Origin: a plasmid
DNA: 64,000 bases
Assembly (NCBI RefSeq): GCF_057098645.1
Contig: NZ_JBXSPU010000002.1
Strand: one strand, 5' to 3'
Position numbers: made by a program. Positions 3,001 to 6,000 of the stretch are shown here, in pieces (position 1 is the first letter of the stretch; each line of letters opens with the position of its first letter).

Positions 3001-6000
3001 GGGGGCTCCCTTGTTGCGACGCACATCCAGATATGATGCCCAGACCAGTGCTTTTGGTATTTCAAATGATTTTCGTTGCATCGGTTACGTCATCCCCTTT
3101 TGGGTTGTGTCTTCTGCAATGAATGTGATCCCCATCCCTTCTCTCCAGACCCATTACAGATTTTTCATCACTACTACGAATGAGTCCGCCCCTGTTTCCC
3201 GATACGTGCCGGAAACAGGTTCTCACGTTCCCTGAGATGGTCTGGCTCGGGCTCCTGCTGCCTTCACACCGGATGCTGCGCAGTCAGTAAGCAGGTGACT
3301 TCTGCGCTTGTCAGGGGACGGCTCTACGGCCCCATTTTGACATCATCTAAGATTTCGATGCATCATCGGACAGTTTACTTTCGTTCAGCTTCCCGAACCC
3401 CACGTGACAGTCGATCTCTGCCTTTTCCCGAGTCGCTCACCACCTCATTCCTTAGAATGAAGCAGCACCGGGTCGTTTGGTCAGTGCTCCTGTAAACCCT
3501 GACCGGAGGGCCCACCTCCACCCACCTCAGAGCATGGATAACTTATGCTGCAATTTTCATATTGTTGCCATAATCCAGTCCCATTCACGTTGTGAGAGCT
3601 TCTCAGCACCAACAGAGAGCAGAACTGTATCAATGCTTTTGCGGGTCAACATAAAGGGATGGGGCGTGCGGCAACAACAGGACTAACGGGGCCGGTTTTC
3701 AATTTGCAGCCGCCAGGCTGCCGTGGTTCCTTAGGGCGGTGCCCATATTACGAGATAAGATCAAGCAATGAGTTAAGTTATAACAGGGGCCTGAATATAT
3801 AGGGGGACAATATCTTGAAAAATATCAGTAAAATTTTAAAAAAAACATGCAAGTATTGATTTTTACAGAGTGGCAATAAAAAATTAATAGAAAACAAACG
3901 CGCATGAAGGTGGTTAATGCTTACATCTAAAAAAGAAATGCAGTGTTCTAAAAATAAACAAGAGGATAATTTAACGTTATTGTTAACCAATTACATTTCA
4001 TATCAGAATATAGTTATATTTACGGGGGGAATCAGTTTAAGATAAGAAACAAGAAAGAATTCACCGAATACACAACAGGACCAAAATCATTGTTTTTTTT
4101 GGCAAAAAATACTCGCTGGGACATGGAAGTTGTCGGAATCGATAATAGTAATCCGTACAGGAAAATTATAATTGATGATGCATTAATTAAGTTGCTGCAT
4201 TCAATATCATCTGATGACTCTTGTTATGTAAAAAAAATATATTTACCGCGGACCTTAATGAAACGCAATTGAATATAGTTTACAATATAATTGAAGATAC
4301 AAAACACTCAGGTAACAACAAAAAGCATTTAAGATATTGTATTTATTATCTTTTTTAATAATCATAATGATATAGTTAATGTCATCCTTAGTGCTTCATC
4401 TACGAGCATCGTAGACAGGGTTATAAAAGTAGTTGAGTTGGATATATCCAAAAACTGGAAACTAGGCGATGTCAGTAGTTCAATGTTTATGAGTGACTCT
4501 TGTCTGAGAAAACAATTAAGCAAAGAGAACTTAACCTTTAAAAAAATCATGTTAGATATAAAAATGAAACATGCTTCTTTATTTTTAAGAACTACTGACA
4601 AAAACATAGACGAAATATCTTGCTTGGTTGGTTTTAATTCCACGTCATATTTTATTAAGGTATTTAAGGAATATTACAACACAACACCAAAAAAATATAA
4701 TGGCATTTATTCTATTACACAAAGCACATTGCCATAATTTTTTAGAGATATTTTGAATCTTATTTGCAATGAGCACTCGAAATGAAGAACAATTTGAGAG
4801 AAGAGAAAGAAGTCGTTCTTGATGGATGTATAAATGTATTGTCATTACCTTCAGAATGGAAAGCAATTACACCTAAAAAAATAATGTCACATCGGAGATA
4901 ATAGTGTTTTTCATTCCCCCCAAGGCTTCTTATCACATTATATTAAAATATGATAACACAAAACATTGCGAATTATTTTTTTCAGACCACATCACCGGCG
5001 AACAAGATGTTATATATTCACAAAGTGCTTTTTTCTCACATGTGATTAATCATATAATAGCTTTAGTTGATGTTCTTAATAAGAAAAGTTACGCAAGCAA
5101 TGTTATAAAATTTTTGATAACGATGGAAGGAGGCGGTGATATTCTTTCTGAATCAAAAAGAGCACCATAGTTTATCAAGTAAAAAATGACACATACACTA
5201 CTATAAATAAAGGTAATTATGGAAATAAGAGATAAAAAGGCGAAGTACTTGGAAGAAAAAGGGTTTTATAGACGAGCTGCAGATCGCTGGGCAGAGATAA
5301 TGGTACATTTATCTAGTGACGCTGAGAGAAAATTGGCAGCTCAAAAGTGTGCATTCTGCATTAATAAATCTCTACGTAATAATCTGCAAGCAGATAACTA
5401 TAGCGACATAAAACAAGGAGTTTATAAAGCATATAAGAAAATGGGGCTTGTAAATGAAAAAATATTTAGAAGCTACAAGGAAAATTAAATTATAACGTAG
5501 ATTGAGTCTAAATAACTGTTCGGAATAGTAGATCTCTCAGGGGGATCTCAGTCCGGTTTATGCTAAATAACTGCTCCTAATACCGCTACACTTTAGCCAG
5601 CCCATGTCCCCGACCGGGGAATGGGCTGACGGTATGTGCACCGTAACTGGCGCTGTTCTTCAACTGTGGTGGCTGAAGAACGACTAAGAGGTGAAAGTTC
5701 TCCACACACCCGGTGAGGGGAAGTGTTAGCGGAAGGCAAGGGTGTTCATCGCGAGGTGAAATCTGAAGGAAGCCGGATGCAAAATGCTGGCCTGACGAAC
5801 AGGAAGCGGTTAAGGCGGTGCAGCGGGGTAAGGTGGTATACATCACCAAAGCCTGATACTCACACGGAACGCTGTGACGTAGAGCCGACAGGCATAAGCA
5901 GGAAAGTCGCGCGAATTACCCCGGGAGATCTGCCGTCCTGCCAGTGTGCTACCGGCGTCGTAAGGCGCAGGGATGGGGCGGCAGAAGTCAGCCGACGCCG

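Follow-up and report, generated by a model that had tools for sequence, protein, structure and literature searches.

The reference EPEC per operon (perABC, also designated bfpTVW) is that of pMAR2, the EAF plasmid of the O127:H6 strain E2348/69, where it lies downstream of an IS1 remnant and is linked to the bfp operon. Its promoter is auto-activated by PerA (PMC3581565; PMC6094958), and perC is expressed after PerA activates the operon (PMC3581565). Defective forms of the operon have also been described, and the accounts of this allele that bear on the present work name MB80 (O119:H2) as its type strain and place it also in O128:H2, O142:H6 and canine strains (Okeke et al., 2001; PMC4594896). 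All 32 perA-positive atypical EPEC strains studied by Teixeira et al. carried perA frameshifts, and in the same 32 strains the place of the IS1 remnant ahead of per was taken by a partial IS1294 (Teixeira et al., 2015; PMC4594896). Typing in that study relied on the ~500-bp product of the K1978/K1549 primers of Okeke et al. (2001), and many of the perA-positive atypical strains had a bfpA truncated by IS66 (PMC4594896). Since 2001, defective-EAF or atypical EPEC have been told apart from typical EPEC by the pairing of a perA frameshift with an upstream IS1294.

A second point of comparison is provided by the Pch proteins of EHEC prophages, which also belong to PF06069 and serve as small LEE1 activators without a PerA or PerB partner (PMC6094958). 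Pch genes are prophage-borne, under their own regulation and 30-50% identical, whereas the perC gene considered here would be the third cistron of a dead operon.

The per locus and the defective-EAF allele class

The window analysed here comprises 64,000 nucleotides of a plasmid (NCBI RefSeq assembly GCF_057098645.1, contig NZ_JBXSPU010000002.1), read on one strand from 5' to 3'. Its own record is absent from the plasmid and complete-genome collections that were searched, in which the best match reaches 99.96%. Between positions 3500 and 6000 lies an AT-rich island, in which short ORFs in shifting frames are followed by one clean 89-codon ORF. The genes of this island and the elements immediately upstream are as follows.

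1644-3520, - strand: group II intron adjacent to the IS fragment that precedes per (Rfam RF00029, 1771-1848; RF01999, 3403-3519)
3573-3729: IS91-family (IS1294-like) end fragment, directly upstream of the per promoter region; an inverted copy (96%) of 20836-21034
3741-3916, + strand: per upstream region and putative promoter, conserved with pMAR2 by alignment
3917-4737, + strand: perA pseudogene (AraC/XylS-type activator), 821 nt against 825 nt for an intact perA of 274 aa
4782-5170, + strand: perB pseudogene, 389 nt against 390 nt for an intact gene of 129 aa, with A8 shortened to A7 at 4875-4881
5219-5488, + strand: perC, an intact 89-codon ORF matching Pfam PerC (PF06069, E = 4.1e-40) over model positions 1-90 of 90

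GC content is 29% in perA, 32% in perB and 34% in perC, against 47.5% for the whole window. A first-pass annotation made from the sequence alone had described this stretch as an AT-rich locus with the layout of the EPEC per operon, decaying through frameshifts near homopolymers in perA and perB, with only perC left intact. The nucleotide alignment to EPEC perA, perB and perC that it proposed was carried out; the segments proved collinear, the indels could be located, and both the layout and the decay were supported. Within the reach of blastn, window positions 3702-5565 form a single collinear alignment with pMAR2 16960-18831 at 94.8% identity, and megablast of 3800-5565 against pMAR2 perABC gave the same identity with E = 0. 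Some 20 records were matched by the per region when plasmids and complete E. coli genomes were searched with megablast. Gene order (perA-perB-perC) and spacing are shared with the reference operon, and the likeness of ~95% extends over 1.86 kb, including ~175 bp upstream. Rfam assigned no RNA family inside the per locus, and around it only group II intron domains were detected.

The surroundings differ more than the operon itself. Where pMAR2 has an IS1 remnant upstream of per, the window has the IS91/IS1294 fragment and the group II intron, and whereas per of pMAR2 is linked to bfp, the window has no bfp operon nearby: a search for the pMAR2 operon (2646-13903) across the whole 64 kb returned no match. 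Several close relatives of the window plasmid keep only bfpA fragments with IS66. The internal copy of the IS fragment at 20836-21034 adjoins an IS91-family transposase ORF at 21153-22352. Primer K1978, whose design was based on the IS1294 sequence that precedes per in defective operons, finds an exact match at 3591-3608; the K1549 site at 4064-4084 retains 12 matched bases at the 3' end of the primer, with 4 mismatches toward its 5' end. Together the two primers are predicted to yield a product of 494 bp, against the published ~500 bp.

The locus and the defective atypical-EPEC allele thus have in common a frameshifted perA, IS1294-homologous sequence upstream and an exact K1978 site, and relatives of the window, like members of the defective class, carry an IS66-interrupted bfpA and occur in dogs and humans. 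As judged from the upstream IS1294 sequence and the perA frameshift, by which the class is assigned, the locus is a member of the known class of defective EAF plasmids of atypical EPEC. The feature is accordingly already known, the allele class having been described since 2001 and being common on atypical EPEC plasmids. There are two points of difference. The perB gene of the window is frameshifted, whereas the descriptions of the defective class that concern this allele, including that in PMC4594896, report the perA frameshift with no mention of one in perB. In addition, the defective per locus shares one contiguous sequence here with an etp/stcE module and a toxB of almost full length, unlike in the described class.

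Lesions in perA and perB and their inheritance

Lesions were mapped against E2348/69, EC404/03 (intact perA) and a sister allele, L033, in which both perA and perB are intact. Relative to pMAR2, perA carries four frame-shifting deletions and perB one, that of the A tract given above. The perA lesions are as follows.

4024-4029, + strand: lesion 1, G7 shortened to G6, leading to TAA at 4043-4045 (codon 43)
4230-4237, + strand: lesion 2, poly-A tract shortened to A8, one base below the in-frame length
4320-4324, + strand: lesion 3, A6 shortened to A5
4351-4356, + strand: lesion 4, T7 shortened to T6

The first of these suffices alone to truncate PerA at codon 43. A T9 tract was considered as an insertion compensating the G6 lesion and was ruled out, because the shifted frame ends at codon 43, before the T tract is reached. 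In perB, the shortened A tract leads to stops at 4899-4904 (codon 40), with TAA at 4899-4901 followed by TAG. The first-pass annotation had placed the perA breaks correctly but had seen only two, whereas the nucleotide alignments reveal four frame-shifting lesions; its perB break at 4899-4903, near an A7 run, was located accurately, as was its reading of perC as the only intact frame, now extended to an 89-aa product with a full-length PF06069 match. Both perB fragments were assigned to PF06590 (PerB) in related contigs. NCBIfam has no matching family for PerC, for PerB or for the N-terminal fragments of PerA, whereas Pfam has one for PerC.

The sister allele L033 (GCA_041458525.1, contig ABUGLB010000025.1) is 98.4% identical to window positions 3700-5565 and lies in the same IS context; within the stretch that was retrieved, it also shares IS66 TnpB and TnpA as downstream neighbours. 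Its tracts are G7, an in-frame poly-A, A6 and T7 in perA and A8 in perB, where the window has G6, A8, A5, T6 and A7, respectively, and it encodes a 275-aa PerA and a 129-aa PerB, both of which are broken in the window. Upstream of perA, the A tract at 3838-3845 is shortened to A8 in the window, the counterparts being A9G in pMAR2 and A11 in L033. Such a near-isogenic relative with an intact operon dates the lesions.

To follow the lesions through the lineage, 16 distinct related records with identities of at least 99.4% were compared. They comprise a plasmid from Chinese swine, Korean isolates from humans and dogs, material from UK wastewater, NCBI draft genomes and two ENA metagenome assemblies, and span four countries and several assembly types. 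The perA G6 is present in 15 of the 16 records, the remaining one having G5; likewise, perB A7 is present in 15, with A6 in the other. Two or more perA lesions occur in every record, the least affected being L019 and L025, with G6 plus A8 together with perB A7. Other perA tracts vary within the clade: T7, T8 or T9 at 4093, A7, A8 or A9 at 4230, A5 or A6 at 4320, and T5, T6 or T7 at 4351. When the window was compared with two relatives over 11.6 kb, indels were confined to perA. Indel polymorphism was clustered in the perA homopolymers.

The lesions of perA and perB are real and inherited, since G6 and perB A7 are each shared by 15 of the 16 records, which are independent and differ in origin and assembly type. 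An ancestor of this plasmid lineage lost one G of the perA G7 and one A of the perB A8, and further slippage in perA homopolymers then accumulated differently by sublineage, the window carrying three more such lesions. The pattern is that of an old inactivation followed by continued slippage in a gene that no longer matters.

The first-pass annotation had left three causes open for the breaks, and the 16-record survey upholds genuine, inherited inactivation while leading us to reject both slipped-strand phase variation and sequencing error. Toggling of perA and perB within a population by slipped strands would be in keeping with the position of every lesion in a homopolymer, with the differing lengths of four perA tracts among near-identical plasmids, and with the observation that in other lineages the poly-A tract alone sets perA open or closed. 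Such toggling is nevertheless very improbable here: the window would need four corrections in perA and one in perB, G6 and perB A7 are essentially fixed, and an open perA or perB was found in none of the 16 records, so that the clade offers no ON variants. Because each clade member has at least two perA lesions, no single slippage can restore the gene.

Homopolymer indels are typical long-read errors, and odd tract states (G5 and A7, for example) do occur in two non-RefSeq relatives, CP148558 and CP148560; among the matches listed, poly-A frameshifts in perA of the E2348/69 type are likewise seen in three assemblies suspected of being long-read. That the genes are truly intact and merely misassembled is scarcely credible, however, in view of the recurrence of G6 and perB A7 across the independent records. 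Tracts of equal or greater length outside perA are invariant (T9 at 745, A8 at 1187 and A8 at 3838), the window shows zero indels over 9313 nt against O157 toxB, and the etp/stcE region shows only 2 in 18.8 kb. Furthermore, PCR sequencing showed perA frameshifts in 32 strains (PMC4594896).

A further reading starts from the 3' open stretch of perA at 4333-4737, whose 134 codons lie in a third frame and hold the AraC-type HTH part; this stretch, alone within perA, still matches AraC-family HTH regulators (HilD, E = 4.5e-23), and its A7 tracts at 4540 and 4689 are invariant in all sequences examined. These features could reflect a C-terminal PerA fragment, made from an internal start, that still regulates something, which we consider extremely unlikely. 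No ATG with a recognisable ribosome-binding site stands at the start of the stretch, and the ORF call begins only at TTG 4438; two constant 7-base tracts among close relatives weigh little, and DNA binding needs residues in both the N- and C-terminal domains of PerA (PMC3581565).

State and survival of perC

Downstream of the inactivated genes, perC encodes a protein 96.6% identical to PerC of E2348/69, from which it differs by L30H, R44C (TGT at 5348-5350) and N85S. The exact protein has long been present in UniProt (TrEMBL Q9EUG3) and is found on 424 public contigs (966 index blocks), against 391 for the E2348/69 allele. A word-indexed protein search returned three clusters, all PerC proper, and the wider family was reached through an exhaustive search of representatives. 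In an alignment of 30 PerC/Pch representatives, the window protein keeps the invariant R18, R19, A20 and W24 and the near-invariant R23 and C47, whereas position 44, which is Arg in 25 of the 30 and Cys in none, has changed to Cys. L30H and N85S were considered as clade-specific changes and discarded as such: H30 is shared with the sister allele P0007 and with the E. albertii allele P0001, and S85 with P0001.

The comparison with L033 narrows the recent history of the gene. PerC of L033 is of the UniProt Q9F874 type, with R44 and N85, where the window has C44 and S85, and these two differences, both nonsynonymous, are the only ones in perC. Three variants segregate within the clade (Y10C, D22N and R23C), and all are nonsynonymous as well. 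Changes since an L033-like state therefore stand at 5 nonsynonymous to 0 synonymous, against 4 to 9 between E2348/69 and E. albertii (pN/pS 0.10), a contrast with a Fisher p of 0.03 that is based on five changes only; p rises to 0.06 with only the three robust changes, D22N and R23C being singletons in assemblies with odd tract lengths. The R44C substitution and the purely nonsynonymous change since the nearest relative with an intact operon would fit a relaxed constraint on perC.

That perC has stayed open requires no selection, because the gene has just one run of at least 6 bases (3.7/kb), compared with eight in perA (9.7/kb) and four in perB (10.3/kb). About half of the perA and perB tracts have changed length somewhere in the clade, so that the chance of the one perC tract escaping a hit is about even. 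Across the more than 40 per loci examined, perC is open in all, including every lineage with a broken perA.

We consider it quite probable that the locus is what remains of the EAF-plasmid per operon, inherited in a non-functional state, and that perC survives in it as a relic rather than as an active regulator. With perC as the third gene on a transcript whose promoter PerA itself would activate, perC transcription would be expected to be weak or absent, because PerA is truncated and early stops lie upstream. The open state of perC may be owed mainly to its shortness and its single homopolymer. A locus of this kind would no longer drive bfp or LEE expression, and the bfp operon is in any case absent from the window and fragmentary in its relatives.

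The principal competing view sees perC as an orphan regulator that selection maintained once perA and perB had been lost; expressed by read-through or from a promoter that does not need PerA, it would still switch on LEE1 (ler) in the host strain, in the manner of the EHEC prophage Pch proteins. Its persistence in every locus examined, whatever the state of perA and perB, the very wide distribution of the allele, the full-length Pfam match with its invariant residues, and the conservation of the perC Shine-Dalgarno region and of the intergenic spacing would all agree with such a role, and AT-rich DNA could hide a PerA-independent promoter. We nonetheless judge it unlikely. With its single long run, perC would be expected to outlast perA and perB even when unselected; none of its five changes since the relative with an intact operon is synonymous, and R44C alters a conserved position of the family. 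Expression of perC depends on activation of the operon by PerA (PMC3581565). Promoter-like sites are not in excess: across 3650-5700, a sigma-70 consensus search gave 9 where 9.4 would be expected, and 0 terminators, a result that is uninformative on a separate perC promoter. Cloned perABC operons from defective strains reportedly did not activate LEE1 and bfpA fusions.

A broader proposition appears similarly doubtful, namely that in atypical EPEC and EHEC-like strains selection maintains perC because its product acts alone, with no need of PerA, to activate LEE1 or further PerC targets. If this were true, type III secretion would still be modulated by a seemingly dead per locus, in the present case from a plasmid that also carries toxB, etp and stcE. 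The first-pass annotation had suggested that the surviving perC bears on LEE regulation in this lineage; this suggestion found no support, given the known allele class, the PerA-dependent expression of perC, the R44C substitution and the small homopolymer target that the gene presents. For annotation, the remnant reading means that perA and perB are to be called pseudogenes, and that an open perC is not evidence of Per-dependent LEE activation in the lineage. The intact near-isogenic relative, the R44C change in the surviving PerC and the clustering of indels in perA homopolymers may be of interest to specialists.

Mobile elements and the plasmid mosaic

The per locus is set between two group II introns. 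The upstream one encodes a 408-aa reverse transcriptase/maturase (ORF 1855-3081; TIGR04416, E = 9e-113), and the downstream one, whose 5' end repeats 1644-1714 at 85%, is interrupted by an insertion sequence. The downstream elements and the virulence genes farther along the window are as follows.

5563-7435, + strand: second group II intron, following perC (Rfam RF02001, 5745-5914; RF01998, 5949-6033)
6239-6937, - strand: IS66 tnpA, interrupting the second group II intron
6914-7435: maturase remnant of the second group II intron
11527-20556: toxB
23212-24521: IS3-family element between the two modules described below
39045-41705: stcE

Genes for etp type II secretion lie between toxB and stcE, and the toxB/stcE plasmid context named in the first-pass annotation is thereby confirmed. 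The two halves of this context have different affinities. From position 1 to ~23,200, the window, with per and toxB, matches pCAU16175_2, pZ1323HEC0399-2 and similar plasmids; from 26,827 onward, the part with etp, stcE and the partition genes matches a different plasmid family at 99.5-100%, which includes pZ1323HEC0399-3. Both pZ1323HEC0399-2 and pZ1323HEC0399-3 come from the same Korean strain. Because the two parts match separate plasmids elsewhere, the toxB/stcE plasmid of the window is a junction of two modules, and in addition to the IS3-family element, a distinct IncFII repA region lies between the per/toxB and etp/stcE parts. Remnants of IS91- and ISL3-family elements are found downstream, beyond the second intron.

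Poly-A tract of perA

The poly-A tract of perA, located at 4230-4237 in the window and A9-A11 long in other lineages, is the sole lesion in 7 of the 14 perA copies from outside the window's clade. In these seven copies, a one-A change in the tract is enough to regain an ORF of 274 or 275 aa. In a further sample of ten loci of the type found in EPEC E2348/69, perA was split at the same tract in three, yielding ORFs of 118 and 158 aa; among the compared loci, L046 and L012 are a single record.

Occurrences of the perA poly-A tract
4230-4237, window
same tract, compared per loci L008, L012, L031, L035-L038, L044-L046

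The tract is either hypermutable, in which case it could switch the Per regulon, or the site of a recurrent homopolymer assembly error.

Variation within and around the per genes

An intact counterpart of the window's per locus is found in L033, a near-isogenic relative (98.4% identity) that shares its IS66 context and encodes an intact PerA (275 aa), an intact PerB, and a PerC with R44 and N85. L033 serves as a natural "before" state of the decay in the window.

Per locus of the intact relative
1191-2770 of ABUGLB010000025.1 (GCA_041458525.1), L033

All length-variable tracts of perA, as well as 14 of the 15 substitutions in the gene separating the window from L033, fall in its 5' two-thirds (3917-4377, as against 4378-4737). 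The A7 tracts at 4540 and 4689, in the part coding for the HTH, are constant in all readable copies, both from clade members and from the sister lineage. The pattern may be due to chance; recombination affecting the 5' part and a remaining constraint on the gene are other possible causes.

Upstream of the putative -35 element of the per promoter, AT-rich DNA contains another A-tract (3838-3845), which is A8 across the whole defective clade, A9G in pMAR2 (the EAF plasmid of E2348/69), and A10-A11 in the sister lineage. It lies at the putative position of the PerA box.

The surviving PerC carries R44C (codon at 5348-5350). Of 30 PerC/Pch family representatives, 25 have arginine at this position and none has cysteine. 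A related variant, R23C, which affects a near-invariant arginine, is present in two other per loci.

Plasmid context and toxB

The window is a junction of two modules, each of which exists as a separate plasmid in related strains. Within the junction, the IncFII repA region is about 88-92% identical to the related plasmids listed below.

Modules of the window
1-23200, per/toxB module, matching pZ1323HEC0399-2 and pCAU16175_2
23212-26826, junction region carrying a divergent IncFII repA region; IS3-family element at 23212-24521
26827-64000, etp/stcE/partition module, matching pZ1323HEC0399-3 (100% from 26827) and ST17/ST302-type plasmids

Two group II introns in opposite orientations flank the per locus, and a 71-nt repeat (1644-1714 and 5563-5633, 85% identity) is common to the ends of both.

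Introns flanking the per locus
1644-3520, minus strand, upstream group II intron retaining an open 408-aa reverse transcriptase/maturase
5563-7435, plus strand, downstream group II intron interrupted by IS66 tnpA

The toxB gene (11527-20839) aligns with its O157:H7 counterpart over 9313 of 9507 nt at 98.9% identity and without indels. A nonsense codon at position 3010 shortens the ORF to 3009 aa versus 3169, and an IS91-family element takes the place of the 3' end from 20839. A 1.8-kb remnant of the 3' part of toxB is also present on pMAR2, at 98.4% identity.
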